Shown: positions 1,403-62,382 of the stretch, piece after piece
How positions within the stretch are numbered: position 1 is the stretch's first letter
Layout: each line of letters starts with the position of its first letter
Made by a program: the position numbers and the translations under genes
Assembly: GCA_010093605.1 (NCBI GenBank)
Contig: MU004193.1
Location: forward strand, 999,520 to 1,063,519
Reading direction: 5' to 3'
Length of the DNA: 64,000 nucleotides
From: Lophium mytilinum
Taxonomy: Eukaryota
Notes under the pieces: generated by a model
Databases searched by the model: none
Told to the model about the DNA's origin: nothing
What the model saw: only the letters and a program-made list of their open reading frames with translations

Positions 1403-3388
1403 ATGCCTCGCAAGCAGGTCTACGGCAAACGTGCCCCGGCCATGTCGCTCTTTTCGAATATTCTTGATTCCTCGAGCCCGGAGCAATTAGATGTGAACGC
1501 ACCACGACGTCGGAGGATGCCAGGGGAGAAAAGGGCTGCGAAGAAGACAGAAACCGAGCTGAAAGATATAAAGAATGAAAGGATACAGGAGGCGGAAGTT
1601 GCGAAGCAAGAGGCGGTCAAGACACAAGGGCATGAGGATACTGCACTGGGCGATATTGAGAACCAGATGGAGAGCTTGAAACTTGAGGCTGCAGATACAG
1701 AAGCGCGATCGAAAGAGAGTTCGAAAGAGAAGAAGGCTAGGAAAGCGCTGAGAACAAAGGATGCGAATTCGAACCCGGTCGCTACGGAGGGGATCAAGCA
1801 GAAACGACGCATAAAACCTACATCTGTGATCATACCGGTGGATACAGAATCCCATAATGAGGTGCCTGTGGAGATAGCTCTAAAAGAGATGCCACTAGCA
1901 GAGCAACCTCTAGATGCCCTAGCCAAGTTGGCGATACGCCCGAAGTCGTCACATGAAAACCACCAGGTCCAAGCCCAAGCTGCAATCCTTCCTAAACAAC
2001 ATGTGGAAGACAAGTATACACATATACGGCCACTCCTCGACCTTTGCAGCGATCCTGCTGCACGACAAGCCCCAACACCGTTCTCGTCCTGGTCCTCAAA
2101 GCTCGAACCCCACTTCGACGTTTCCAAGATCGCCGAAGCCTCCTACGGCGAAGTCTACCGACTCTCCCTAAAATCCTCCATCCCCGGCTTCACAAAAGCA
2201 GACGAGTCGGTACTCAAAATAATGGCTCTAAAGCCATCACCAGAACTATGTCCAATTATCTCCGAAGATGGTACGATGTCTAAAGCCGACCTTGCTCGCC
2301 AGGGTAAAATAGGTTGGATGTCTTCGCCCGCATCCGTGCTATCGGAAGTCCAACTCCTCCAGCTCATGACGCCGATACCTGGCTTCACGAACTTCCGCGA
2401 GTTGCGGATACTCGAAGGCCGCCCAGCACCCGCATTCGTTACAGCATGGAAGGCATGGAACAAGAGCAAGATCAAGGGCGAGAAGAGTGTTTTCCCAGAC
2501 CCAAGCCGCAAAGCTAATTATGACGAAAACCAACTATGGGCCGTTGTCGAAATGCAGGACGCTGGGTGCGATCTCGAGAACATCGAGTTACGAGACATTT
2601 GGAGTGTGTGGGACGTATTCTGGGGCGTGGCGCTCGCCATCGGCAAGGGAGAAAAAGGCGTCCGCTTTGAACACCGCGATCTTCATCTCGGAAACATTTG
2701 TATCCGCTCGTGTCGATCACCATCAGAAGATGCCGAGAACACAGACCCAGCGTCCGCTCTCACTGCCCAGAAGATTCGCAATACGCACCGCAAACTCGGC
2801 TTCACGGGCCTCGAAACTACGATTATCGACTACACCCTCTCTCGCGCTGACATCGCCGACTCTCCGGCGCCTGCTGTACAGGATGTGGCCTTCCTGGACC
2901 TCGAGGCTGACCCCGCCATCTTCAGCGCCGACGCGACGTATGAGTACCAGTACGAGATATATCGCCACATGCGCTCGGCCATCTACTACGGTCGTCCACT
3001 CGCTTTCACCTCTCCAGATCCTTTAACCCTCCCCGCCCACCTCCTTAAAGCAACCACGTGGCGAGAATTCCATCCCATCACGAATCTTATCTGGCTCCAC
3101 TTCTTGCTGCATAAGCTCCTCGAAAACGTGGTCTGGCCGTCGAGCGATCCGGAGCTCGAGATCACGTTGGCGAGGGTGGACGGAAAGGTAAAGAGGGCGG
3201 AGCGGAGGGCGCGAAAGATCGAGCGAGCGTTGGTAGCATTAAGGGACATGTTAGATCCGGAGGTGCTCGGAGATCACGGAGACGAAAGGGGCGTGGCCAG
3301 TGTAGGGGAGCTAGTCGCGGTTGCGTTGGTGGAGGGGTGGTTGGGCGAGGAGGATGTGGTGGGTATTGCTGGAGAGGGCAGTTGGTGA
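1403..3388 (+). CDS. Haspin-family protein kinase
   Basis: Single-exon ORF with KIAEASYGEVY, FEHRDLHLGNICI, haspin-type TIIDYTLSRA, YQYEIYR and TNLIWLHFLL after a disordered N-terminus. Start placed at the ATG of MPRKQVYGKR. Confidence 0.9.
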   Translation: MPRKQVYGKRAPAMSLFSNILDSSSPEQLDVNAPRRRRMPGEKRAAKKTETELKDIKNERIQEAEVAKQEAVKTQGHEDTALGDIENQMESLKLEAADTEARSKESSKEKKARKALRTKDANSNPVATEGIKQKRRIKPTSVIIPVDTESHNEVPVEIALKEMPLAEQPLDALAKLAIRPKSSHENHQVQAQAAILPKQHVEDKYTHIRPLLDLCSDPAARQAPTPFSSWSSKLEPHFDVSKIAEASYGEVYRLSLKSSIPGFTKADESVLKIMALKPSPELCPIISEDGTMSKADLARQGKIGWMSSPASVLSEVQLLQLMTPIPGFTNFRELRILEGRPAPAFVTAWKAWNKSKIKGEKSVFPDPSRKANYDENQLWAVVEMQDAGCDLENIELRDIWSVWDVFWGVALAIGKGEKGVRFEHRDLHLGNICIRSCRSPSEDAENTDPASALTAQKIRNTHRKLGFTGLETTIIDYTLSRADIADSPAPAVQDVAFLDLEADPAIFSADATYEYQYEIYRHMRSAIYYGRPLAFTSPDPLTLPAHLLKATTWREFHPITNLIWLHFLLHKLLENVVWPSSDPELEITLARVDGKVKRAERRARKIERALVALRDMLDPEVLGDHGDERGVASVGELVAVALVEGWLGEEDVVGIAGEGSW

Positions 3389-26575: not shown

Positions 26576-27963
26576 GAGGTAGAGGGCGAGTGTTTCGGGA
26601 AGCAAGCATGGTCTTTTTTACCTGTTGTTCTGAGTGTCATATTCTACGAGTGCATCCGAAGTGATAATGCAGAGCCTCAACCTTGTTTTGCAGACGGATC
26701 GATGGACTCCGAGTCGGATTAACTGGTTGTCCTAGTCTATGGGGATAGTTAAGTCCGTCCGTTTGGCACACTCCTAAATCATTGAATAAAAGGGCATCTC
26801 TCGCTACCTCAGCGGTGGTAGAGATCAGTTCTGTACAAAACACACTGATTCATTTTCTGTCTATGTGAGCTCGTTTTACTGCCTAATATTATATCGGCCA
26901 CTGCACTACATATTAGGGTCTCGATACCTCGGCAGACAGCGCTCCTCCCCTTACCGCGATAGGGGCTACGAAGTATTATCTTACATGGAGGGAGCTAATA
27001 GAGGGGGGTTTTGGGATTTAATATTGCAGTTACACGAGGTGCCGGAACGTGATGATAGAGTTGGGGTCGAGTTATAGGAGCATCACGTGAAGCACACGTG
27101 CATATCATGTGATTGTGTTTCTTGCACACTTCCTCTGCCATTTTGCCTTTCGTTGTGCTGCTGTATTCAAGAAGGGACTACTGCTTCACTAGAGAGAAAT
27201 CGAGAATAGGAAATGATGTTAAAAGCTTGGGAAACGAATATGTCTGAAAGAAAAGATGTAAAGCAGGAACTGATAGATGGGAAACCAATGTCTTTTCCCA
27301 AACATGAAGTTCTCCTCGGGACACACTCCTCTTTGCTATTTGCTATGGCCACAGTCCTGTTCATCACGCGTAAATGGTTGTGCTGCTGCCTCGATGGTCA
27401 TCTGTGGCGCGCGGTGTCACCCGCTTCACTGAAGCCTGCGACAGTCTCATCAACGGGAACGCTGCTGAAGCCTTGAACCGCGAATCCTCCTCCCCTTCTG
27501 CAGCAGCCTCGCCGCTGCAGTCGGCGCATCGCACTTCCAAATGTGCAATGTGTCGAATGCGCCTGATGCCGCAGAGTGGAAGCGCCTGAGGCGGAGTCGC
27601 GAACTGGCTGGCTGGGTGCGGAGAACAGCGATCTGCCCCTTGCCGCAGCTGTCGCAAGTCGGCGGTGCCGCGTGCCCATTGTCGCGGTTTGGCGGCGGCG
27701 ATTGGGCGGGGGTGTGGCGGGTGAGGCTGAGCAGGCTTCCAGATGGTTTCGCGAGTGCGGGCTAGTTTGGGTGGTGCGTCGTGGTCGAGTGGTGGAGGTC
27801 AAGGCAGCAGCAAAATGCCCCCGAACGGCTTATAGCCACCATTTCCGCCATGACGACGCTCCAAGGCTTCTGTCGAGGGCTGCCGACTGTTTTTCCCTTT
27901 CTGTACAGTACAACTTCTTAATTGCTAGCCAGTTCTGCTTCCATTGCGCCCCTCGACTTTACC

Positions 27964-30900
27964 ATGGAGACCCTAGGCCGACTTCCCCGACGACTGACCA
28001 AGCTGTACTCCGACACCAAGACGTCCTGCGACGCCGTAATCGAGCAGGACACCACCGACACCCTCCCTGAGCTCAGCGCTTTGAACCGCAAATACCGCAT
28101 ACAGAAGAATAGGCTCATTGCCTGGGGCCTGGAATGGAGCGATAACGGCGCGTCCGACCAGGGCGACATTGACGACTCGCTGGAGCGCGCGGGCCTAGCA
28201 CAGACAGTGACGAGCGTCCTAGGCACAATAAAAGAGATATTGGATGAGGCAGAGAATATGCAGCCGCCCGCACACCCTGCCGCAGCGAAGGGCGTGTCTG
28301 AGGAGAAGAGCGGGGCGCGCCCTCAAAGTGCAGTCTCGTGGGCGGCCTCCGACAGATCGCGATATGAGGACCTAGCGAAGGACCTCACCAGCTCCATCGA
28401 CACTCTATATCAACTATCAGAGTCGCGGAGGGCATTTCGACAGAACACGCGTGGGCTGAGTCCCGGTCCTGTCGGGAAGCTTGGCATAGAAGCTTCCAAA
28501 ACCCCCTCGCCATCCGTATTCCTATCCTCCGACTACAACGCATCAGATGTCACTCTGATAAACCCCGCAACGCTGCCCCATGGCGCAAATATATCTTTCA
28601 GATCAGGACTGCCACCGAAACTCGATCCTTCGGATCTTACCTTGCCAGAAGAAGAGCCTCCTCCATACGAGAGTGTTGGAGTGACCACTTGCACAAAACT
28701 GATTGGACGTCTTCGCCAATCACACAGCTCGACAAACCCCTGGAAGACGGACGGGAGTAAAACTATCGAGACTCCCGTGCTAGTTGAATATGCAGCTTAC
28801 GATCCTACCTACCGACTCACTGGCATCTCACCATCTTTAGATCGTCTGGATTCCCTCTTGTCAATTCTCGTCAAACTAGGATCCGAACAGTCCTTCCACG
28901 GAACCCTTCAATGTGTTGGATACTTTGAAGATCCGAAGCAGCCTAGATTTGGATTGGTTTTCGAGCTGCCTTCATTCGTGTATTCCGGGCCTGTTGACTC
29001 GCACAAGCGCGTCGAAGATATGAGACCAGTCACTTTACTAAGCGTCCTTCAGTCTGGCTCGAAGTCTTTTCACAACTCGAACAGTACGACCCCTCCTCTT
29101 GAAGACCGATTTCGCTTAGGCTTCACCTTGGCCCTCACTTTCAGCAAGCTTCATGCGGAGAACATGGTTCACAAGGATGTTAACAGCAGTAACATTGTTG
29201 TTTTCCGCAAGAACAGGCCGGCCCATCAATCAAACAACAATAGAGCGCTCGATTTCGCCCTACGATCACCTGTCATTTGCTCTTTTGATCTCTTTTCTGA
29301 GTACGACATCGAACCTGCGAAGACCATGTCTTCACCGAACATCTATCGACATCCAGAAGACCCGAGATTCACAGGCAACAAGTCACAGGACTACGGTCCT
29401 CAATTTGACATGTATGGTCTTGGATTGATTCTACTTGAAATAGGGCTCTGGACTCCTCTTTCCGATCTCTGGAAGGCTAAGTATACTCTTGCTGATTTCA
29501 AACTCCGTCTAGAAGAAATATACATCCGACGACTGGCCTCCAAGTGTGGAACCGCTTACATGCAGGTCGTGCGCGACTGCTTCTTGGCTGCAGACCAACG
29601 AGCATCGGGCCTTGAGACTTTTGAAACATTCAGCCAAATTTACAATCGGATGCTCTTGCGGCTGCGCCGGTGCTGCGCCCTCGACGAATCCGATCCACTG
29701 CCTGACTGGAACCAAACAACCCTCCAGTCGGCACCTTCAGGCACTATGTTCAAGCGGAAAAGCGTCAGCCAGATCCCGACGGCAGAAACTCCAACTAGTC
29801 CTTCAGCATACAGGGACGCGAAACGGTGGGCGATTGAAAAAGGGTCCCATATTTTAGAAAGAAGCACATCACGCTCCAAACACGCATCGAAGCCATCGTA
29901 TGGCTCGTCGCCGAATCTGTCGTCGCAAAATCTGACGTCATTGTCTCGAAACAACTCCAAATCTTCCCAGCATTCTTTGTCCCTCCACAAGAAATTCTCA
30001 CAGAGCATCCAAGGCCTGAAATCACCAAAGGAACCTGAAACCGAGACTATGGACTGGCAAACGCAACACGCCCGCAATGATTCGCTCGAGGAGTCTGGCA
30101 CTCTGGTGCCGTCATCCAAGGCGTCGAGCCCCTACCTAGACCACAAGGAAGAGCTTTCCACGCTGCGCTTAGAGCGAATGGGCAACGCAGCGAGCGTCAT
30201 CCAGCGTGCATGGAGAGCACGGAACGAGTCAAAGGAATTTAAAGACTACAGGGGCAAGATCGAGGTCATCCAGAAGGTTTGGCGCGAAAGGAAGACGAGT
30301 CGATCTGGTTCCATCGCTGCTCTCGTTGAAACTAGTACCCAACATTGGCCAGAGGCAGGCCTCGGATTCCCGACCGCCGAAGCTCCTCGAGAGCCAGAAG
30401 CTCGCATAGTCGAAGCAAAGCCAAATTTCGTGAGATCCTCGATCCAGATAGACACTGACATCGAACCGGCTCCGCGACGAAAGCTTCGCGTTCATCCGGT
30501 CAAGTTCCCACCGATAATCGTGGACAACTGGCACATGACTATGCTTCCGAGACTAGAACGACTAATCGCGCGAACACTCAAGGATTCGCAGGAAACTGTC
30601 AGCATCGACCTTCTAGCTGTTGGCGAAACTCAGACTACCACCCGGCCCACTATTTTCGTGACGTGCACCAGCACGGCGAGAGTTAAGGGTGTCCTCACCC
30701 GCAAATTCAAGTACGACGACTCAGTCTTCGACCTCAAAGTCCGACGTGGAAAGATCAGGCGTTCGAAGCTCACGAGACCAAGTCGTAGAAGGAAGCAGCC
30801 TCATCGATCAATGATTAACGATGAAGCGTACTCAGCCGACATGCAAGTCATGAACCCCTTCCACCAGCAGCGCCCTCTCTGTGGTGCATCCATCGGTGCC

Positions 30901-32222
30901 TTTCGCGACGAGCATCTCCCACCCGTCTCCTATGGAGGCGTCATCATGGTAGACAACGAACCATTAGGAATGAGCGTACATCACCTCCTCGACGCCCCAA
31001 GCGAAGACGACGACAGCGAATACGGCGAAGAATACCAATCCCCCGACGAAACCACCCGCTCCAGCGCCCAAGGCAACCCCTGGCTTGCCGGCATGGGCTC
31101 GCAACCGGGCCTCGAAATCGGCGAAACAGCCATGTTCGACTTCGAGATCTCCGACGACGAAAAGAGCGACGACGACTTGGCCTACGACTCGGAAGACAAC
31201 ATCTCCGACTCCGACTTCTCCAGCTCCGAAAACGACGACGACGACGACAACCTCGACAACTCCGGCGACATCGACGGCATCAACATCGGCGAAGGCGAGG
31301 AAATCGTCATCACGCAGCCCGCCATCGACGACGTCGACGACGACTTCTTCCCCGAGCCCGAAGACCGCGACGACGACCACATCTCCTCGCACAAGCTCGG
31401 CCACGTGCACGCCTCATCCGGCATCCGGCGCTGGAACCGCGGCGGCATCGTGCACGAGATCGACTGGGCGCTGCTGAAGCTAGATAAGGACCGCCTGCAG
31501 CCCTACAACCTCATCCAGGGCGGCCGCCGCTTCTGCCCCTCCGCCGCGCCGCCGGAGATGTGCCCGAACCTCGCGGAGCCCGTGTGCCGCCGCCACTTCA
31601 AGCCCGAGGAGGACGAGTACCCGAGCCAGGTCGCGGCCGCGGACGGGCTCGGCGGGCTGGGCGTGCACTGCTTCGGACGCACGTCGGGGCTGAAGGGCGG
31701 CGTCGTGGGCGCCGCGATGAGTAGCGTGCGGATCTATAAGCGGAAGACTTTCTCGCGGAGCTGGCATGTTGTTGGCGGGTTTGGAGGTACGCGCTCACTT
31801 CCCTACCCTTATCTTATCTATCAAATTTAGTACTAACATTTTGCGTAGTTGGCGGCGACTCCGGCGCCTGGGTCATCGAGAACAACGACGGCCGCGTGTG
31901 CGGCCACGTGCTGGCGTGGTGCGCGCGCAACCGCCTCGCGTACATCTGCCCCATGCAGGTGCTGCTCGAGGATATCAAGCGCACCCTCGGCGCGCGCCGC
32001 ATCTGCCTGCCTGGCTCGGAGGACAGCAGCGGGCCGCAGGTTGCGGGAGATGTGAGGGAGGTTATTCTGGGGCGGTCGCCGGTGGAGTTTGAGCTGCCGG
32101 ATCTGCAGCGGCTGAGGCTGGTGGGGAAGGAGGGCGAGAAGGAGATGGCGCCGGTGTTGAGGAGTCGGGTGGGTTTGGGGGTTGTGGGGGTGGGTGGGGA
32201 GAGGGTGAGGCAGGTGGCGTGA
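27964..32222 (+). CDS. HeLo(-like) domain + protein kinase-like domain + IQ motifs + C-terminal trypsin-like serine protease
   Basis: N-terminal RKYRIQKNRLIAWGLEW. Kinase-like VLVEY, CVGYFEDP, VHKDVNSSNI, YRHPE, DMYGLGLILLEIGLW. Protease-like CGASIG, VHHLL, EIDWALL, GRTSG and, after intron 31788-31848, GGDSGAWV. Confidence 0.8.
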
Positions 32223-35052: not shown

Positions 35053-36577
35053 ATGGAGACCATTGGGCTTCGTGCTCAGTTCCTCCAGGGTGAGGCTGGC
35101 TCTGCCAAGTCTCTTCGCCAGTTCGCCCCAACCATGACCCTCGACTCCAAGGTCAAGGCTTTGGTCCAGCCGGGTCCAGACATCGAGTGGGACCCCTCCG
35201 TCTCCACGTACGAGAAGCGTGTTGCTACGCTCGCTAAGCAGGGCCTGCCGCGTGCCAACGAGGTCCCGGCGGGCTTCCCTGCGAAGGTCGATGCTCCGTG
35301 GGTGTGGTCCGGCGCCGACTTGGATGAGTCCAAGTACATCGTGAAGCTGGACGGAACCGAGATTGCCGAGGTCGAGAAGGCCTTGGAGCACTTCAAGAGT
35401 ATGTTGTTGTCGAGGTCCATGATGGGGAATGTTGGTGATGGGATGTGCTGACGTTGAATTTAGATCTGCCGGGAAAGCTTGGCGTGGGCGATGTCTCCCA
35501 GGAGACGTTCCCGCTCCCAACCCTGCGCCCGATGCTCGAGGGCATTGCGAAGACTCTGCACCTGGGAATTGGCTTCAGCGTGATTCGTGGTCTTGATCCG
35601 AAGCGCTACACGCCATTCGAGAACGCGGTCATCTACCTTGGCATCACTGCGTATATCGGTGAGAAGCGTGGAGTGCAGGATGCTGGTGGCAGCATGATGA
35701 GTAAGTGAACGAGCAGCACCGAGGTGACGACGACAAGATAGCTAACAAGGGAACAGTCCATGTCAAGGATCTTGGTAGCCAGATTCCCAATTCGGAGCTG
35801 CGACAGGCACCGTATGCGCGCAACCCACAGGTATGTATGAGTGTCAGGCTAGATGAGGGATGACCTGACGTGCTGTTAGCCTTTCCACAATGACGTATGC
35901 GACATCTTGGCGATGTATGTGCAGCAGCAAGCAGCGTCTGGCGGCGAATCCATGCTGGCATCATGTGCGAAGATCTACAACGAGATCGCCGAGAATCGCC
36001 CCGATGTGATCCATACACTGGCTGACCCTAGCTGGATCTTTGACAAGTAAGTGGTTTCGCATTCTCTAGAGGCTGGTAAAAGCCGTTGCTGATAGCGAAC
36101 CCCAGGCATACGACGCCCGCTTTCTGGAACAAGCGCGCTCTCCTCTTCAATTTCGCTGGACATGGCCCGGGCTTCTGCTTCTCGCGTCGCCCCATTACCG
36201 GCTCGCCCACCTCCCCGCGCTCTGCTGGCGTCCCGGCCATGACCGAAGTGCAGGCCGAAGCCATTGACATGGTCCATTTCACTGCCGCCAAGCACCAGGT
36301 CTCGATGCGTCTGCAGCCGGGTGACATTCAACTCATCAACAACTTAGCCTGCCAGCACGCCCGCGCGGGATTCACCGACTCCGCTAGCGAGCAGCGCCAC
36401 ATCATCCGTCTCTGGCTTCGCAACGAGAACCTGGCCTGGAAGACCCCCGACGGTCTCAAGGCCACCTGGGCCGAGAAGTACGGCGACGCTTCTGAATGGC
36501 GCAAGGTTGCCAAGTGGAGCGTTGAGCCTGGCGCATCCCGCGAGCGTGTCATCTGCCGCAAGCACAGCTGCTCCTAG
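35053..36577 (+). CDS. TauD/TfdA (clavaminate synthase-like) Fe(II)/2-oxoglutarate dioxygenase, multi-exon
   Basis: GIGFSVIRGLDP, PFHND (HxD), GGESMLAS, LQPGDIQLINNLACQHARAGF, RHIIRLWLR; four GT-AG introns; TATA-like TATTTAAAA at ~34909. Confidence 0.9.
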
Positions 36578-36994: not shown

Positions 36995-37697
36995 CTAGGT
37001 AGCTGAAATACTTGCTAGGCCTCCTCGCGAGGTCAGGCTCAAATGCGTCCATGGTTCCGGTGAAGTGAGAAAGCGTTCCATGGGGAGGTTTGGTTGTGCG
37101 TGACGCTGAGGCAAGCCTAGGAATTGGCACCCTCCTTCCGTCGTTACACAGTCGAAAGGGCCATTGTAACCATCGCGGCCTCTGGCATGGAAAGGGCCAT
37201 TGTAACCATCGCGTCCTCTGGATTGGAAAGGGCCGTTGTATCCATCGCGGCCTCTGGAGCGGAAAAGGGCGTCGAAATCATCACTGCCACTGAGAGACTG
37301 AGTGCCCTTTGCTAGAGAGAGAAACATTCCTTGGAGTTCCTCCTCTTGCCTTCGCCATGTCCGCTGCCTTTCCAATGGTCTGATTACGGCTTCCATCTCT
37401 TTCGGTTTGTTGTCTTCTTTGAAGCAGTATTCCTCGCTTAGGTAGCGAACTCTACCGGCTCTATCACCTCTCCCATCGGAGGCTGGCCTGAATCTGGGAA
37501 TGGTTGGCGTTTGCTAATAAGTTGTGGGGACATACTTACTCGACGGACTTCGACGTCCCTAGGACCGCTCCCCTCTTCGTAGCCTTGGCCTTCTGCTTCG
37601 AGGCCATCGAATATGGCTTCTTCGTAGGCATTCCGGAGACTGTGATATGGAGGCTGGAGGAGGGGTCGATTGAGGGAGGAGTCCACGCGCGCACCAT
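36995..37697 (-). CDS. Small repeat-containing protein with three RGRDGYNGPF units (exons 37697-37540 and 37493-36995); candidate peptide precursor
   Basis: A 46-nt GTAAGT..CAG intron (37539-37494) joins an upstream ATG (MVRAWTPP...) in frame to ORF 36995-37396. All nucleotide differences inside the repeated core are synonymous. Confidence 0.6.
37154..37261 (-). repeat. Three tandem 36-bp coding repeats
   Basis: Units 37154-37189, 37190-37225 and 37226-37261 encode (RS/QS/HA)RGRDGYNGPF. Confidence 0.95.
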
Positions 37698-38264
37698 TTC
37701 GATATTTGAGGTGTTGAGTACTTGTGAGTGAAAAAGTAGGTTCAGTGTCGAACTTCTGAGATCTCAAAGCTTTAATGATGACGAGAATAGATTCAAGTTC
37801 GATGTGAAATCTAGATACACTCTTACTCGATCGCGCAACTGACATTCTTATACCAACTCACTGTAAAACCGTTCCATCCTCCCTCAGCTTCCAGGCAACC
37901 CTCTTCGACCCTTCTTCGACCTTTCTTCGACGTCTAGACCACAGCAACGAGCTGACTCTCAGCACATCGAAACCCGGCCTCACCAAAGCGGAACCCGGGC
38001 ATCTAGCGAACTACATCATTGCTGATAGCTTGGCGGGGCGTGGTGGTGCGCCGTCTAGCTGCGGCCTGGGGTTCAGTACAAAAAGAGCTGTGTAGAGTTG
38101 GGTGAAGAGGTTGGAAGGATCGTGATCGAGGGTCTAGACCTTTGTTGAAGTATATCGGGCGTCCCACGTCACTGAAGGCATGGTGTAGCAACACCTGACG
38201 TCGAGGCGTCGCGGGCCTGGATTGTTGTTGCGCACAGCCCCATAATGCCAGGGCAGCAGGGATT

Positions 38265-39209
38265 TCATGCAGGGCAAGCGCCACCGATGTCATCGACGTT
38301 CTCCCGGGTCGTTGCACCTGCCACCTCGACCTGAAACGAGCGCTGTGTGCGACGAGTTTGTATTGGCAGCCGGACCAGGCGAATCAGAGACATCTCCTTC
38401 GCCATTGGTGCGTCTCTTCGTGAACATAGTCTCCCCGAACCCGAGGGGAGGTAGACCATGGCGGCCAACACCACACGCTCGGGCTCTTTTTCGACGTTGA
38501 CCAAGACTGACGCGACAGAGAGAAAACCGAGACAGAGATACAAACGCTCGCCCATGGGACTTGCGAATACCGAGACGGCCATGTTCAGACACTCTGCCAG
38601 TTGGATGCCCCAGCCCACCAGCTGGCCGCCCGCGCCTTGGCGCTGGAACTCTGGATGCGTCGCCAGAATCTGGAGCTGAAAGTGGCGGGCACCGAACTGG
38701 CCATCGAACAGCAGCTTCTTCGACGCTGACGTCGTGTCTGTCCAGGCCTGCATACGTTTACAGTCGCCGTCCCGTCTGCGCTGCCGGAACGGAGGCCTGC
38801 GAACTACTGTGACCAGTGAGTTGTTGCAACATAACTACAGCTCCAGGAGTCACAAACTCTTACGGTTCTTTTCGAGTTGGATCTGCACTGTCTTCTTCTT
38901 GCGGATGTTCTTTACCTCCCACACTGCAAAGGCGACAGGCTTCAGCGAGTCGTGTGCGACTCGCTGCTCAGCAAGCATCACAACCCATCGCTCGTGCTGG
39001 TCCTCCAAAAACTCTCTATACCGCATCCTCGTGTACTTTTGAGTATCACCTGGATAGGCCCTCCGGTGAGGAAAACGGTAATCCCACTGAGGATCCATAG
39101 GCAGTGCAGCGAGGCCGATCTCCAGCATGGCCTCGAGATCAGCGACGGAGGCGCGTCGCAGCGAGAGTCGCGGTGAGCGCTGCAAGAGAGCTTTCGATAT
39201 GGGGGCCAT
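38265..39209 (-). CDS. GNAT family N-acetyltransferase
   Basis: LRRASVADL, DPQWDYRFP, PVAFAVW, LQILATHPEFQRQGAG (acetyl-CoA motif A), ASPMGERLY..LGF; intron 38863-38807. 3' end less certain. Confidence 0.88.
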
Positions 39210-39778
39210 GCTCTCGTAGGGCTGATATCGCGGTTTATTTGGACGAGTAATGCTCTGAAGGCCACCAACGCCAGAAGGCAGATTTATTGTCGCGGTCTGG
39301 ACCCCCCGCCTGCTGCCAGCGCGCACGATGACGCAGTCTATATTCGCCCGCTGCTGCCGTGGAGTATGGGGTTGTCTCTGTCATGTAAACAGGGGGCGCA
39401 CCCAGCCCGCGATGAGGCGTCCGGCGACACCAACTGGGCCTAGCCAGGCGGTTCTCAACACCACTGGCGGCTCATCACCGCACACGACGTCTCTGTTCGC
39501 GAACGCGGCTGTATCCTCTCTCATGCCTGCCACCGACGCATGACTGCTGCGTCATTGGCATCCCCGTGCCCGCTTGTACATACAAAGCCACGATGGCATT
39601 CTCAAATTTCACCCATGGCCTTTTGCCTGCCCACTACATGCCCTGAACGAGCCCGCCTCGCGCTTGTTGGCAGCATACCACTTCCTGGCCTTTGCACCCC
39701 GCCCGCAGCACTAACGCCCGCAGCCTGGATGCATGGAACATCCTCAACACAGGCATAGTTCCGCTGAGACTGCCCGCA

Positions 39779-50289: not shown

Positions 50290-53200
50290 ATGGCGACCAC
50301 CGTTCAGTCAGCCGTGGGCACTGCCCAGTTCAATCGAGTTCTCAGCGACTTCAAGCACGAGCTGTCTCAGGATGAAGTCGATGACTTCAAGTTTATCAAT
50401 TCCGACGACCTCAAAAAGGCTGTGCACCGACTGCAAGAGCAGCAAAAGTCGGAGAAACGCATGCAGAATCTGCGCCGATTGAGTTCCTTTCTTGAAGCCA
50501 TGGACCAGTTTGATAAAGTTGTTTCCGTTTTCTTGAACGCTACCGACTATTTGGGCTTTATTTGGGTAAGTTTGTAGGAGCAATTTCTAAACTCCCTTCT
50601 GACGATACCGTAGGGTCCCGCAAAGTTCATGCTGTTGGTAATTGCTCCGGTAGTCTTACTCTCCTTCATATCAGACGTACTGAGAACTGCTAGGTTGCTG
50701 GCTCCTACTCAGAAGCCTTGAACACATTACTCGATGCCTACCAGGAAATTGGAGATCACATACCTCTACTGGAACAATATGAGTCCCTCATCCACAACAG
50801 TCTATATCTACAAGATATCGTCGGGTTAATCTACAAAGACATCTTGAATTTCCACCGCAAGGCAATGAAACACTTTCGGCAGCGAGGTTTGTTGTGTATT
50901 AGTTCGTAAATGATCATACTCTATACTTACGCATTTACAGCTTGGAAAAAACTCTTCCATGCGACGTGGAGAACGTTTCGCACGGACTTTGGCGCCATCA
51001 TCTCCAACCTACAGTCTCATCGGAGGCTTCTCGACAGCCAGGCTATCTTCTTAGGAGTCCAAGAGACGATAAAGGCAATGGAAGAGCTTCATGAAACGAG
51101 AAGGGTTCTTGATGATGAATGCAAGAGAAGGCAAGATGAGGATAGCAAGCGTCGACAACTTGCCGTGATTTCATGGTTGTCTGCTGCAGATAGTGCGAGC
51201 GACCACGAGGATGCGTTTGCAGTCCATGAAGATGAGCCCAATAGTGGGTTGTGGCTGTTTCAACACAACTCCGTCAAAGACTGGATCGATCCGTACTCAC
51301 TATCCGAGCCTTTGCTGTGGATCAATGGGAATCCCGGCGCTGGTATGGCACGTTAACACCCTCTTCAGAATTACACTGATCTCCAAACTCCTAGGTAAAA
51401 CAATTCTAGCTTCAGCTCTTATTGAGGAATGCCGACGTCAGCCACACTCCGCCGCGGCATTTTTCTATTGCAAGCATGGAGATCCCGCCCGAGACAACTT
51501 CATCGGATTCGCACGAAGTTTTATTTTCCAGCTCACAAAGTTGAACTCCTCGCTGCTGCCTTTTGTGCTCGAAAAAGAATCAAGCAGTGGCACAGACTCG
51601 TTGCGGTCATCTAAAATCGCGAAAGAAATCTTGGCGGTTGCTGTTGAGTCCTTTGATGACTTAACTATAGTCATTGACGGCCTGGACGAATGTGTTAAGT
51701 CTCAAAAAGCTGAGATAGTCTCCTGGATACGCTCGGTAGTTGCCTCGGCGGAAACAGATGATTCCAGAAACCTGCGGTGTTGCTTCCTTAGTCAAGACGA
51801 CAACGACACCGGGAGATTGCTCAAAGGTTTACCCACGTTCAAGATCACCGCCGAACATAACAATCATGACATATCGCGTTTCTGTCGCCGCCGAGCAAAT
51901 GAGATTGGGCAGAACTTTGGAGTGTTACCCCAGGATGTCCAAAATTTGGCGGAGTGTGTCGCCGGAAAGGCTGATGGTAAGGCCTTCTAGGAATCCTTGG
52001 AGATGTTCTGACATAATTTAGGGATGTTTCTCTACGCTAAGCTAGTAATGGACAATTTGGATAGCCAGGTCTCTAAGGCGGCACTGAAGCAAGAAATGAA
52101 AAAAATCCCGCCAACTTTGAACCAAGTGTAAGTACTTTGAGGTCGTAAAGTTCTGCAATGGTATCTAATCATTGCAGATACCATCGAATCAGGCACCGAA
52201 TAATAGAGGAATCTAGTCCTTCAGAACAGCAAGTCGCAAAGACACTGCTCAGCTGGCTTCTCTGTGCAAAACGCCCACTCAAATGGCACGAAATTCAGGG
52301 AGCCATGTCCCTGGATTTAGATGGCAATTCGTTCGACTGTGAAAGAAGACTTGTGAGGGATATTAAACATTTCTGCGGGTCTTTGGTTGAGGTTCGAAGA
52401 GGAGGTGCGATCTGTTTTGTCCACCTGACTGCAAAATAGTAAGCCATACGACATGTATATTATCAGAGCGGACTACTGACTCGTGCTCTTTCAGTTTTCT
52501 TCAGGATGAGCCAGCACTTCCGAAGCAGCTCGAGAAGCTCAACTTAACTCGCCTCTGCTTTTCTCATTTATCACTCGATTCGCACGCATCTGATATTACC
52601 CAAGACTCGATTCGTGGATACATTCTCCGTGGCGAATATGCTTTCACCGAATATGCTGTCGTCCACGCCTTCGATCATTTGCTTGATGTGCTTTCGGAAG
52701 GAGGTGATATTCTTACTTTGAACTATGCAGCTCTCGGCATGAACTTGCGAAAGTTCGTTGAAAGGCGCGTCAGTGCACCCCAGAAGCGGGCGTCAGCCGT
52801 CAAAATCATCGACAACAAACTTCAAGTTTTCAAGGATGAGGACTTCTTCAACGGTCTAAAACACGCCATTGTTTACCAAAAAGAATGCGAGGATAATTCC
52901 CCAAAAAAAATCAATGAGGAACCTGTATTGACTCTTCTCCCCCAACTAGCGCGTGTGCGCTTCGTGCTGGAGAAGATGATAATCTCTGGTTCCACTCTCA
53001 AGCTCGATTCTCTCTATAGCCAAAACCTTTTCAAATGTTCGGAACCACGATGTGAATCGTTCCATGATGGCTTTCCCACACAACAGAACCGCGACAAGCA
53101 TCGTGACCAGCACGAGCGTATCTATCTTTGCTCATTCTTAGGCTGTACATCGTCAATGATCGGGTACAGCACCGCATCGGGTCTTAAACAACACGAACAA

Positions 53201-54514
53201 GAGTACCACCAAGAATTACGTGACGGAAATAGCTTCCCTTGGCATGGCACCCTCGAGAAACTGGACATCGCCGTGGAAATTGAGAACGGCAATTATGCTG
53301 CGTTTGAGCTGTGGTTATCTCAGTGGAAAGATACAATTCCAAATCATCAAATTACCAACAGCATTTCGCATCAAAACCCCCTATATCTGGCAAGTTTGCA
53401 CCGCCAGAACAGAATGCTGAAAGAACTACTTGGTAAAGTTTCACCAAAATTGGACATGGGTCAACATATCACTGCTATGAAAGCTGCTATTATGCTTGCT
53501 ATTATGCTTGGAAACGAGGAGGGATTTCGAATACTCGTCAGACACGCGACTACGTTGCCAGAGAGGGAAATCTACAGACTTTTGACGAGCGCTCTTCATC
53601 GGGGCGAAGACAACATTGCCCGAGAACTACTGATATATCCCTCATCACCCTTTCTCCAAGCAGACGGAATGCCAAGACAGGCGTCATATCTGAATCTCAC
53701 TATTCGACATGGGCGCTACGAAATTCTCCAATATATCCTTGAAAACTTCCAGATTGACCCCGATCAAATAGATGATAAGGGTCGTACCTCGTTGATCGCG
53801 GCCGCAGAGTTTGACAAGACCGAAATGGCAACATACCTCGTCACAAACCGAAAATGCAAAAAGTGGACTACGAATAAGAAAGGCGATACTCCGCTCTCCA
53901 TCGCTGGTCGCGAAGGCCACGAGGAGTTCATTTCATCGATATATCACGAGGAGAGAAATGAGCCACAAGTCCAGGAATGGCTACGAACAGCCCAGCTCCG
54001 TAATGCTACCCGCGATGGATCTGATCAAAAGGTTAAAGAGCTACTTAATGACAGCTCCCTGCACGTTGATGAGATGGACCGTCAAGGCCGCTCGCCGTGG
54101 TTGTGGGCAGTAGAAAATAGCCATGACCGCGTCTTAGAGGTGCTTCTTAGGAGGTCCGATATTGAATTTCTTAGAAAGGGACCCTGGGCCCGGTCTGACG
54201 TGTCTAGGATAGAAAACAGAAAAGACGGCCCTGGTGCGCTCCATGTTACCGCTTTGGCCGGGCATGATTCAACAATGCGAGTGCTACTCCAAAGTGGCAA
54301 ATTTGATGGCGAACTTGACCGACACTGCCCGTTCTTTTTGAAAGGTCCGATAGGATCGGCGGTTTCAGGAACGCCTCTAGGTATCGCAAATGAATGCGGC
54401 CACAAGGATACGGTAAGGATCATAGAGGAATACAAGGTTTCTTTGGATAAGAAGGACAAAGCATCGCCAACCAGCACGCTTCTACCGATAACAGAAGTAC
54501 GATCAACGGAGTGA
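50290..54514 (+). CDS. Fungal NLR: N-terminal helical domain, NACHT NTPase, two C2H2 zinc fingers, ankyrin repeats
   Basis: Walker A LWINGNPGA|GKT, FFYC, Walker B IVIDGLDEC, GMFLYAKL, RPLKWHEIQ. C2H2 fingers CSEPRC..H...H and CSFLGC..H....H. Ankyrin-type GRTSLIAA, GDTPLSIA, GRSPWLWA, GTPLGIA. Exons splice in frame. Confidence 0.9.
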
Positions 54515-59920: not shown

Positions 59921-60331
59921 AAGTAGTTAGCTACTAGTAATCCATTCTGAGCGCTGCCAAGGGTAACCTTCGTACTACACTTTTTGGATGTGGATGCATA
60001 GCCCACTGCCATTGAGCACAGGGTGCCCGTACTTCCGGCCTACTCAGGTCCTCTGCCGGCGGGATCACAAATGCAAACTGTAACGATATCGGTGAACGAA
60101 GTTAGCGAGTTCAACTGAAGGGTGAATCACGTGCTGTCGTGACGTGGCGCAGGCCGAGACGCTCTAGAGCCGCCACCTAGCCAATAGGTTGCGAGATCTC
60201 ATGGTCCAAGGCCTTGGCTGAGACTGCACAGCCTTCACCCCTGATTTCCAGCTGTCCACAGCCTGGTTGACCCCAAATGCACTTTAATCAACTCGTCTTG
60301 CCAAAGCTTGAATGCAATATGGTCTTCCAGT

Positions 60332-62382
60332 ATGCAAAATCCAAACTCAACGGCCCAAGGTGGTCTCTTCAAACACAAACCACTGTCCCCTGGGAAAACA
60401 ATCCGACTCATAAACCTCCATCCCGCAAAACACTTCACGGATCCGATCAGTTGTACTCTTCAAGAGTTTTCCCTCGAACCACTGGTGCAACAGTCCCGTG
60501 AAGCTGTCCGCCTAGGAGGACAGTTCACATCATTCCCCGAATTCTACGCCAAATACTCGCCCTATGAAGCGCTCTCGTACGTCTGGGGTTCTTCGATTGA
60601 CTCCCACGAAATCACCTGCGACAGAAGGCTGATGGCTGTAACTGCCAATTGCTTTTCAGCACTACAGCACCTGCGGCTGAAAAGCACGTCGAGAATTTTA
60701 TGGATAGATTCCATAAGTATGGACCAAACGTCGTCCGCGGAAAAGAACCACCAACTCAAGCTCATGGATTTGGTGTACAGTAGCGCAAAAAGAGTACTCA
60801 TCTGGCTCGGTGAAGGCAATAAGAATAGCCGAAGGTTAATGCGCCGGATGCGCTGGGTTGGCAAATACGGTAATCTCGAGTTCGAAACGAGAAACCAACA
60901 CATCAGTCGTCAGCTTCTCCTGAAAGCATTCTCAAGGGTGACGCCAGGTACGATTCTCATTCTTTCGACTTTGTCGTACTGCTTTGCATATGGTGCAGTT
61001 TACTAATTAGTCATGTAGAGAAATTTATCACCGCACCTAAACATCTGCGTGACGATTTCCCCTTTTCATGGTTCGAAAGGGTATGGACATTGCAAGAAGT
61101 GGTGCTTGGATCTACATCAGTTGTTCTCTGGGGATTTGCCTCGATGCCTTGGTTACACTTTGAGTCCTTGATACTAGTAAGACATTGGGACCTAGGGGGT
61201 ACGGTGCAGAGTACTGCATTGGCGGCGAAAAGCCTCAGCACACTTCTCACCTTCGACCGAGCGACCACTGATGCCAATGCGAGATCCATTGCCCCTGATA
61301 TAACATCGGATCTGGAAGCCGTATCGCAGGAGATTCGTACCGCCGGAAGCATCCTTGTTTTCGAGTCCGCTTATACTCGGTCATGCCATGATCCACGCGA
61401 CAAAGTATATGGTCTTCTCGCGATTCTTCGCAGGCTAGGTATCACTATGCCGGAATCAGATTACGAAACGCCAGTCCCGATGGTCTATGAGCAGTTCATA
61501 TTCGCCATGATTAGTAGCATGAACAGTCTGCATATCCTCACCTACATTCCGCTCGCATTCAACGTTACTGGCTGGCCTACCTCCTGGATACCAGATCTCA
61601 GTCAAGGCTCCGGAATTATGGCGTCAAGTACAGAACTAGCCTGGCGTACAGAACTAGCCTGGCGTACCTCCGACTCGGGAATGACGACGTTTCGCAATAC
61701 TTTCCAGCTTCAGAAAACGAGCGGGAAGCTTGCTCTCGAGGGAAGATTGCTTTCAGAAGTAGCGCACGTGGGACAGACCTGCCCAGGGGCTTTTCCATCA
61801 GCCGACAAGCTCTTGCACCACACAGCTATTTTCCTCTGGATAGGGACCTTTATCAAGGCGTTGCGTGCGTGTGAAGCGTATCCGAACGGAAAACCAGCGA
61901 CCAGCTTACTCTCAGAGCTCTTAGACGAACGGTTTGATCGTGAAAGAGTCGCCGACACCATCGAAAGTGGCTTCGAGCCCGTCAAAACCTGCTGGGACCT
62001 GGCGTACGACCCTGTAAAGCGTGAGGGGCTGGGACCGCAACTCGAGCAGCTCGATCCCGACGTCGTACTCTGCTGGATGCTGCAGCAATCGTCTGTTGAT
62101 AAGATCTTAAGCGTAGTCGCAAACCTTACCGGCAAAGGCGTCGGGACGACGCCGGTTTTTCTCGCCGACGGATGCATTGGGCTCGCGCTTCCGAGATGCC
62201 AACCTCAGACCGGGGATGTCGTCGTTTTATTATACGGGGCATCCAAGCCAATGATTCTGAGGCAGCATCGAGGAGGACACATTCTGGTAGGAACGGCGGA
62301 GATTGCCGGTGTTCCTAGCAATATCTGGCCGCTCAAGTCAACCGATGGACATGAAGGAGTACAGGAATTCACGCTGGTGTAG
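60332..62382 (+). CDS. HET (heterokaryon incompatibility) domain protein
   Basis: IRLINLHP, YEALSYVWG, LWIDSISMDQ, MDLVYSSAKRVLIWLG, WFERVWTLQEVVL, DPRDKVYGLL, SWIPD, GDVVVLLYGASKPMILR; intron 60948-61018. Confidence 0.92.

Follow-up and report, generated by a model that had tools for sequence, protein, structure and literature searches.

In the yeast alpha-factor precursor a KR-EAEA sequence stands ahead of the repeats, and in the MSDIN precursors of the amatoxins and phallotoxins, which are about 35 residues long and have no signal peptide, one hypervariable core lies between conserved flanks. Prolyl oligopeptidase cuts after proline. Arg-Gly-Gly (RGG) boxes, to our knowledge, usually come without an invariant Tyr-Asn and a patterned flank. 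Here we analyzed a 64,000-nucleotide stretch of the Lophium mytilinum genome (GenBank assembly GCA_010093605.1, contig MU004193.1, positions 999,520 to 1,063,519 of the forward strand; hereafter the window, whose own numbering is used throughout), in which a small gene on the minus strand encodes three tandem 12-residue units with the core GRDGYN. A preliminary description of the window, made from its letters alone, had considered the repeats as a peptide precursor, with an amyloid-signalling motif or an RG-rich interaction motif as alternatives. We favor another reading, which we regard as quite possible but hold only tentatively: the units may be tandem copies of a short linear motif for recognition, in a protein that is disordered and not secreted.

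The gene begins with an ATG at 37697-37695. Exon 1 (37540..37697, minus strand) holds 52 codons and two further bases of an open reading frame that begins MVRAWTPP..., and is followed by a 46-nt intron (37494..37539, minus strand; GTAAGT...CAG) and by exon 2 (36995..37493, minus strand), which includes the stop codon at 36995-36997. The annotated intron is the one that the preliminary description had predicted, and its removal gives a 218-residue protein that is identical, letter for letter, to the hypothetical protein BU16DRAFT_91775 of L. mytilinum (NCBI; P0002 in our collection), with exon 2 alone showing 100% identity to it over 165 residues. If the intron were retained, a stop would be met at codon 54. 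Two metagenome homologues, P0004 and P0005, cross the exon junction as a single frame (...SNWFRPALDGR...), and this uninterrupted frame lends the splice support that does not depend on the Lophium gene model. By annotation and homology, the repeat gene is judged to be real.

The three units all lie in exon 2, in a stop-to-stop frame of 172 codons (36995-37513), and Tandem Repeats Finder reported the array at 37154-37270 with a period of 36, 3.2 copies and 88% matches. On the minus strand of 37154-37261 the three 36-nt units are RSRGRDGYNGPF (unit 1, 37226..37261, with GRDGYN at 37235-37252), QSRGRDGYNGPF (unit 2, 37190..37225, with GRDGYN at 37199-37216) and HARGRDGYNGPF (unit 3, 37154..37189, with GRDGYN at 37163-37180). 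Their codons are CGC TCC AGA GGC CGC GAT GGA TAC AAC GGC CCT TTC in unit 1, CAA TCC AGA GGA CGC GAT GGT TAC AAT GGC CCT TTC in unit 2 and CAT GCC AGA GGC CGC GAT GGT TAC AAT GGC CCT TTC in unit 3, an exact match to the codons and frame noted before. Six nucleotide columns vary among the units: three in codons 1-2, where the variants alter the residue (R/Q/H and S/S/A), and three in the 10-codon core, where GGC/GGA, GGA/GGT and AAC/AAT are each third-position and silent. This column-by-column comparison agrees with the earlier claim that the core differences are silent and that residue changes are limited to the two-residue spacer. Silent changes make up 23% of all single-base changes to the core, or 28% with transitions weighted 4:1, and the P value for three silent differences out of three is 0.013-0.023, a figure that rests on only three events; the within-array pattern is suggestive, a hint of selection on the peptide and no proof of it. 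Since five of the six frames are open across the 108-nt array, openness alone is uninformative, and the strand and frame of the units are settled by the homologues, which also back the selection on the peptide proposed in the preliminary description far more strongly than three silent sites can.

Upstream of unit 1 in the gene lies a decayed unit 0 (37262..37297, minus strand; residues ~119-130, ...SGSDDFDALF), into which the array reported by Tandem Repeats Finder reaches as far as 37270. The nearest relative of the Lophium protein, P0003 of Mytilinidion resinicola (E 1e-52, 70% identity over the aligned part), has an array made of a half-decayed TGRDHYDGHF, with which unit 0 aligns, followed by the intact units YSRGRDGYNSPF, HSRGRDGYNGPF and HSTGRDGYNGPF. 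The two arrays match in order, one decayed unit and then three intact ones, which places the origin of the array before the two genera separated. GRDGYN is retained in all six intact units of the two proteins while the sequence outside the units is ~66-70% identical. The core had earlier been delimited as RGRDGYNGPF; GRDGYN(G/S)PF is indeed constant in both species, but the first R is replaced by T in the third Mytilinidion unit. As a side observation, the C-terminus of P0003 diverges completely past the last unit and lacks the PMERFL...PW block of the other family members, which an error in the gene model, a frameshift or a true loss could explain.

These comparisons bear on the view that the array is a young tandem duplication that drifts neutrally and has no function. 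Such drift would accommodate the fact that only three silent differences back selection within the array, and that about a quarter of the distant family members have degenerate units. It does not sit with an array older than the Lophium/Mytilinidion split whose hexapeptide stayed intact six times out of six in a changing protein, nor with the fact that 203 of the 231 proteins collected, which come from several fungal classes, have at least one unit (a collection made with motif-containing profiles, and counted without P0001, the window's own stop-to-stop frame). As judged from these alignments, neutral drift is contradicted by cross-species conservation, and we consider it highly improbable.

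We next consider the family to which the Lophium protein belongs. A profile built from 12 relatives and searched against 1.84 billion representatives matched 114 of them at E<=1e-3, 71 at <=1e-10 and 9 at <=1e-30, most of them 140-240 residues long and covered across nearly the whole profile. This family, here called family A, is undescribed, and its named members (Zopfia, Melanomma, Neocucurbitaria, Pyrenochaeta and Coniothyrium) are all Dothideomycetes. Its consensus reads M..L.ITM..KYRavqRpDGVIVE.PRYRP...DLrGIG..GRDGYN.pvd.GRgGYN...PMqRFL.E.GPWS, and the G, R, G and Y of the unit are invariant in the 12-sequence alignment. In an alignment of 81 sequences, four conserved blocks stand amid freely varying sequence. 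Block 1 is an N-terminal L.IT(M), which takes the common form SSSLxITxSG in P0003, P0004, P0005 and P0013. Block 2 is KYRAxxRxDGVIVE.PRYxP, with the Lophium/Mytilinidion branch having FRPAxDGRxDRAGRVRY in place of its KYRAxxRxDGVIVE part, and block 3 is DLrGIG followed by the units. Block 4 is the C-terminal PMxRFLxExGPW(S/T), whose F, L, P and W are conserved at 79-90% over the 81 members; in the Lophium gene this family motif is PMERFLTSPEPW (37049..37084, minus strand, with the pattern match RFLTSPEPW at 37049-37075). The Lophium protein matches the family A profile over its full length, including the N-terminal L.IT and the C-terminal PMxRFLxxxGPW. A search for longer proteins (383-2000 residues) with the repeat region found none at E<=1 among 440 candidates, which is weak evidence.

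Family A proteins have between zero and four GRxGYN-type units, and these are arranged regularly. Among 94 family-A-like proteins the spacing of units is 11 residues in 28 of 34 neighboring pairs, and those with two units mostly have an Asp-type unit followed by a Gly-type unit (18 proteins, with GD in 2, DD in 2, GG in 1, HG in 1 and ND in 1). On this sequence evidence, a fixed order and spacing appear to fit a binding geometry better than the production of identical peptides. Furthermore, 22 of the 94 have no recognizable unit, several of them with decayed copies, and yet keep the C-terminal motif, which argues that the role of the family is not simply delivery of that peptide. The preliminary description had named free nonsynonymous change in the core of orthologous repeats as an outcome that would speak against it; such change does occur in part of the distant family A, but not in the close relatives.

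The earlier remark that the units lack KR flanks and the protein a signal peptide agrees with what we measured. The hydropathy of BU16DRAFT_91775 reaches a maximum of 0.17 in any 19-residue window and of 0.77 in any 10-residue window of the first 35 residues, and its only dibasic pairs, at residues 26, 41 and 100, are far from residues 131-166, which hold the units. By this crude measure of N-terminal hydropathy, which was applied alike to the Lophium protein and to its relatives, BU16DRAFT_91775 lacks the signal peptide expected of a Kex2-processed repeat protein, and an N-terminus resembling one is seen in none of the 94 family-A-like proteins. Gly, Arg and Ser are abundant in the Lophium protein, and neither exon product matched a Pfam family at E<=0.01. 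AlphaFold2 models had a mean predicted local distance difference test score (pLDDT) of 50.7 and a predicted template modeling score (pTM) of 0.13 with 12 sequences, and of 60.4 and 0.23, respectively, with 81 sequences; the repeat region scored a pLDDT of 52-55, no strand was predicted, and the only helices were three short ones at residues 94-107, 192-196 and 203-207. The own model of the ESM Atlas for the protein has a pLDDT of 0.45. BU16DRAFT_91775 is predicted from these models to be disordered, and the most confident stretch of the AlphaFold model is the block at 191-200 in the C-terminal motif (pLDDT 83, helix 192-196). A profile search of the PDB returned a best E of 0.11, which is not meaningful, and the best ESM Atlas score for P0002, 0.81, is at chance level.

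The recognition-motif reading is favored because leader and cleavage sites are lacking, because three further blocks are conserved besides the units, because unit order and spacing are fixed and because the units are lost in a quarter of the family. We infer from this that the motif binds a partner and that it is retained in the protein. In this proposal the three GRDGYNGPF copies would stay uncut within the 218-residue protein and together form a multivalent platform at which one conserved trans-acting protein docks or makes modifications, and the N-terminal block and the C-terminal PMxRFLxxxGPW helix could provide further contact points for it.

The hexapeptide is also found in many proteins outside family A. 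In a tally of 247 units from 126 proteins, position 1 is G, position 2 is R and position 4 is G in all 247, G and R being fixed by the search pattern; position 3 is G in 127, D in 79, K in 22 and S in 11; position 5 is Y in 243 and position 6 is N in 238. Position 7 can be any residue, position 8 is P in 136, V in 22 and L in 13, position 9 is hydrophobic, and position 10 is D in 83 and E in 30. Copy number among the collected proteins ranges from 0 to 15. Hypoxylon proteins of 345-505 residues have 4-15 GR(G/D)GYNQP units behind a different, well-conserved N-terminal region, and an hhalign comparison with the family A profile aligned the unit pair only (probability 92.8%). By eye, MPFDxxLExFPWLP and ERYRA....G(V/I)PPVL in the conserved N-terminal region of the Hypoxylon proteins P0078, P0083 and P0097 resemble the C- and N-terminal blocks of family A in another order, but no relation is claimed, as hhalign supports the unit match alone. 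Three Ser/Pro-rich proteins of 282-432 residues (P0100, P0110 and P0120) have 7-10 copies of R(E/D)G-L-x-GRKGYN-(A/S)-P that lie 20-50 residues apart, and from their sequence look like multi-site docking proteins built on the GRxGYN module, and a Lichina confinis protein has six units with a period of 13.

The short carriers (~40-200 residues) comprise 180 proteins matched at E<=0.01 by a profile of ten short proteins. Among the 120 of these matches listed, the Leotiomycetes are represented by Hyaloscypha, Glarea, Hyphodiscus, Drepanopeziza, Cadophora, Hymenoscyphus and Bisporella, the Sordariomycetes by Fusarium, Dactylonectria, Stylonectria, Colletotrichum and Diaporthe, and the Eurotiomycetes and Dothideomycetes by Exophiala, Hortaea and Aureobasidium, together with one Mycena; the typical layout is a Ser/Thr-rich start, F-GRGGYN-GP, an acidic stretch, F-GRGGYN, RGPDDDEEED-GRGGYN and the stop. 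The best ESM Atlas match for one of the short proteins, P0157, is an unnamed Ascomycota cluster of 195 members (score 0.88), which is probably its own cluster. Pfam searches with 25 relatives and motif carriers gave only sub-threshold chance matches and an MBOAT domain on a Drosera protein. Some metagenome entries have N-terminal extensions that resemble gene-calling artefacts, and as the carrier sets were gathered with motif-containing profiles, the presence of the motif in short proteins is partly by construction; many carriers are also mutually related and not independent. To the extent that sequence comparison can tell, several unrelated backbones in filamentous ascomycetes carry G-R-(D/G/S/K)-G-Y-N, mostly with x-P/V-hydrophobic-D/E after it, as a portable module; by the same comparison, the hexapeptide is retained in at least four Pezizomycotina classes and in no fewer than five protein architectures.

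Outside the fungi we observed a set of similar proteins (P0191, P0198 and P0094). Its grass members, which include proteins of Leersia perrieri and Oryza rufipogon, have a hydrophobic leader and 4-6 GR(S/G)GYN-SVNP(D/N) repeats, and the Drosera rotundifolia member is the MBOAT-domain protein, with eight GRGGYN units in its tail. These look-alikes could reflect convergence, shared descent or contamination.

Two features of the carriers concern the ends of units. First, 126 of the proteins outside family A have at least two units, and in 94 of these the C-terminal residue is itself the Asn of a unit; the 94 span different backbones and classes (Hyaloscypha, Glarea, Exophiala, Hortaea, Aureobasidium, Hypoxylon rubiginosum, Diaporthe and Lichina). 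The residue ahead of the terminal unit is Asp in 76, and the residue ahead of an internal unit is most often Phe (120). Second, six of the 231 collected proteins have two basic residues directly after at least two of their units: P0011 (4 of 7 units), P0147 (3 of 6), P0156 (5 of 6), P0167 (4 of 5), P0205 (2 of 2) and P0220 (2 of 6). Hydrophobic N-terminal leaders are visible in P0011, P0156, P0205, P0109, P0215, P0216, P0219, P0222 and P0227, and in P0011 KR-EAEA precedes a unit. Judged by sequence, the dibasic carriers that bear a leader have the layout of Kex2-processed repeat proteins, and if they are processed in the Kex2 manner their product would end in ...GRGGYN with a free carboxylate.

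These features bring in the strongest challenge to a retained recognition motif, namely that the Lophium protein is a leaderless multi-core peptide precursor, whose units would be cut after Asn or Pro into short GRDGYN-centered, possibly modified peptides and whose conserved N- and C-terminal blocks would be recognition sequences for processing enzymes. The dibasic and leader-bearing carriers, the many proteins with a terminal Asn and the wide range of copy number all accord with a precursor, as do the variable spacer and constant core of the Lophium units and the Pro that brackets each of them. The Lophium protein itself and its 94 relatives are without a signal-peptide-like N-terminus, however, and its units are without dibasic flanks; Pro occupies position 8 in only 136 of the 247 units overall. 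The 22 of 94 members that are unit-less with the other motifs kept, and the conserved Asp-then-Gly order, also speak against a precursor. In addition, no processing or modifying enzyme is common to the two loci compared, and the motif is absent from the searched portions of the text and supplements of two surveys of Kex2-processed repeat proteins (PMC7329392, PMC6339444). The precursor proposed in the preliminary description has evidence on both sides: the Lophium gene, without leader or cleavage sites, and its unit-less relatives speak against it, and other carriers, which have signal peptides and KR or RR after Asn, speak for it. We consider the precursor reading possible, though it seems rather unlikely for the Lophium protein. 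It agrees with the recognition-motif reading that something recognizes the unit; the two differ on excision.

Several observations weigh against the recognition motif that we prefer. Its partner is hypothetical. Some proteins that carry the hexapeptide have signal peptides and dibasic sites directly after the Asn, and a single intracellular reader is hard to reconcile with a motif that also serves outside the cell. The carriers that end at Asn suggest that, in them, a peptide is released whose C-terminal Asn is free. In the Lophium gene each unit ends in Pro, so that every 12-mer is bracketed (...NGP / FQSRGRDGYNGP / FHARGRDGYNGP / FD) as in precursors that are cut by prolyl oligopeptidase. 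The neighboring genes differ between the two loci compared, with TauD and GNAT genes in the window and a P450 gene on a metagenome locus, and the protein sets came from motif-containing profiles and have many related members.

The carriers also allow a broader proposal, that G-R-(D/G/S)-G-Y-N is the core of an undescribed ribosomal peptide class that is widespread in filamentous fungi and has look-alikes in grasses. The active peptide would have a free C-terminal Asn after acidic residues, and it would be made from both Kex2-type secretory and leaderless precursors, the Lophium protein being among the latter. We regard this as doubtful; if true, it would call for a processing enzyme that acts at Asn or Pro and for a receptor or reader that recognizes the peptide.

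The composition of the units raises another alternative, a low-complexity Arg/Gly/Tyr motif of the RGG type that serves RNA binding, condensates, arginine methylation or nuclear import without a single reader. The commonest form of the unit is GRGGYN, with Gly at position 3 in 127 of 247, and GRGGYN lies within the Arg/Gly-rich nuclear localization signal of yeast Hrp1 (as given in the consulted part of PMC8140498); the G/R/S-rich composition and predicted disorder of the Lophium protein would suit this view as well. In contrast, the three Lophium units are GRDGYN, and residues 131-166 contain no RGG; by this sequence measure the Lophium units are not an RGG box. Moreover, Tyr (243 of 247) and Asn (238 of 247) are near-invariant, the x-P-hydrophobic-D/E flank is patterned, and many carriers are strongly acidic or secreted. 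An RGG-type motif is therefore improbable here. What stands of the RG-rich interaction motif suggested in the preliminary description is linear recognition, close in kind to our preferred reading, while its RG-rich character is not borne out by Asp-type units that lack RGG.

The window also holds genes that, from their domains, are of the fungal non-self recognition type: a 1302-codon frame at 27922-31830 (plus strand) that encodes a HeLo domain and has a weak match of the kinase-like/DUF7580 kind, an NLR-type gene at 51169-54514 (plus strand) with an NPHP3_N NACHT domain and ankyrin repeats, and a HET-domain frame at 60245-61006 (plus strand). Such a setting, along with the shortness and repetition of the motif, is what one would look for in an amyloid-signalling (prion-forming) motif that pairs a small protein with an NLR immune receptor. 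When all 64 kb were searched in six frames, however, the motif was found only at 37163-37252 and on none of the HeLo, NLR and HET genes; the Lophium protein matches no prion-forming motif of Pfam, and the search for a protein of 383-2000 residues that includes the repeat region, itself weak evidence, found no fusion. The period of 11-12 residues, the fixed Arg and Asp of each unit and the lack of a predicted strand also speak against an amyloid, although AlphaFold is no test of amyloid formation. The amyloid alternative of the preliminary description thus went unsupported, and we give it very little chance.

As to the immediate surroundings of the repeat gene, Pfam identifies a TauD/TfdA-type Fe/2-oxoglutarate dioxygenase gene at 35445-36577 (plus strand), which is convergent with it and has its stop 418 bp from that of the repeat gene, and a GNAT-type acetyltransferase gene upstream at 38265-39380 (minus strand). 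No DUF3328/UstYa oxidase was found near the gene in Pfam scans of 30 open reading frames of the window, in which genes broken by introns may be missed. A scan of metagenomes found one related locus among 57 pattern matches (L001, 3.7 kb), with a two-unit family A member at 2-565 and a cytochrome P450 frame as its only neighbor (1552-3006, plus strand, Pfam E 3e-17), ~1 kb downstream of the family A member. We also observed three tandem 11-bp copies at 37898-37931 (consensus ACCCTTCTTCG on the plus strand, gtcgaagaagg-type on the strand of the repeat gene); they stand ~200-235 bp ahead of its start codon and could be a cis-regulatory element.

In the full-text literature that was searched, which has about 1.7 million PubMed Central articles and the subscription journals outside it, neither the motif in several spellings nor six locus tags led to a paper on the motif. 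None of the literature matches to GRGGYN, GRKGYN, RDGYNG or GRSGYN concerned it either, and those checked were the Hrp1 signal, in the part of the article consulted, and a synthetic peptide ending in ...RGGY-NH2; for further spellings the only match, going by its title and the start of its abstract, was the nucleotide motif GYN. The GRxGYN module thus appears to be undescribed, with no Pfam family or name in the sources searched. No other part of fungal genomes is annotated as poorly as short conserved peptides and linear motifs, and the carriers of this module include proteins with the build of secreted pheromone-type precursors and a large set of 50-90 residues that end on the motif. If the unit is a recognition motif, there must be a conserved reader for it; as a released peptide, it would form a new fungal family with both secretory and leaderless precursors, some of them in plant-associated genera (such as Fusarium, Colletotrichum, Diaporthe and Hyaloscypha). 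Under either reading, a synthetic peptide of 6-13 residues offers a direct experimental handle.

How, then, does the Lophium protein compare with the described systems? It shares with Kex2-processed repeat proteins, such as the yeast alpha-factor precursor and those of the ustiloxin type (as treated in the consulted parts of PMC7329392 and PMC6339444), a tandem conserved peptide, variable spacers and variable copy number, and with three units at a period of 36 nt it has the three or more near-identical repeats by which these proteins are defined. It differs from them in having no signal peptide, no dibasic sites at its units and extra conserved motifs outside the repeats, and since two of the three defining features are lacking it falls outside that class, while some module carriers fall inside it: P0011, P0156, P0167 and P0205 have the full layout. 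Compared with an ustiloxin-type (dikaritin) cluster, the locus has TauD and GNAT neighbors and no DUF3328 in the scanned open reading frames. The MSDIN precursors resemble the Lophium protein, with its Pro-bracketed 12-residue units, in lacking a signal peptide; in the Lophium protein, however, the core is the conserved part, the length is 218 residues and the N-terminus is different, and Pro is far from general among the units overall. The RGG signal of yeast Hrp1 (PMC8140498, the part consulted) literally contains GRGGYN, a unit of the Gly type, whereas the Lophium units have GRDGYN without RGG, and their invariant Tyr-Asn and patterned flank are foreign to RGG boxes. Fungal amyloid motifs (HET-s type, sigma and PP) likewise are short repeats in small proteins, and HeLo and NLR genes are present in the window, but no NLR or HeLo gene of the window and no Pfam motif matches the units, whose period is shorter and whose core is charged. 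Finally, some carriers of the GRxGYN module are secreted, which sets it apart from linear-motif arrays in disordered proteins; with those arrays it shares conserved short blocks, variable linkers, a motif that can move between backbones and a changing copy number.

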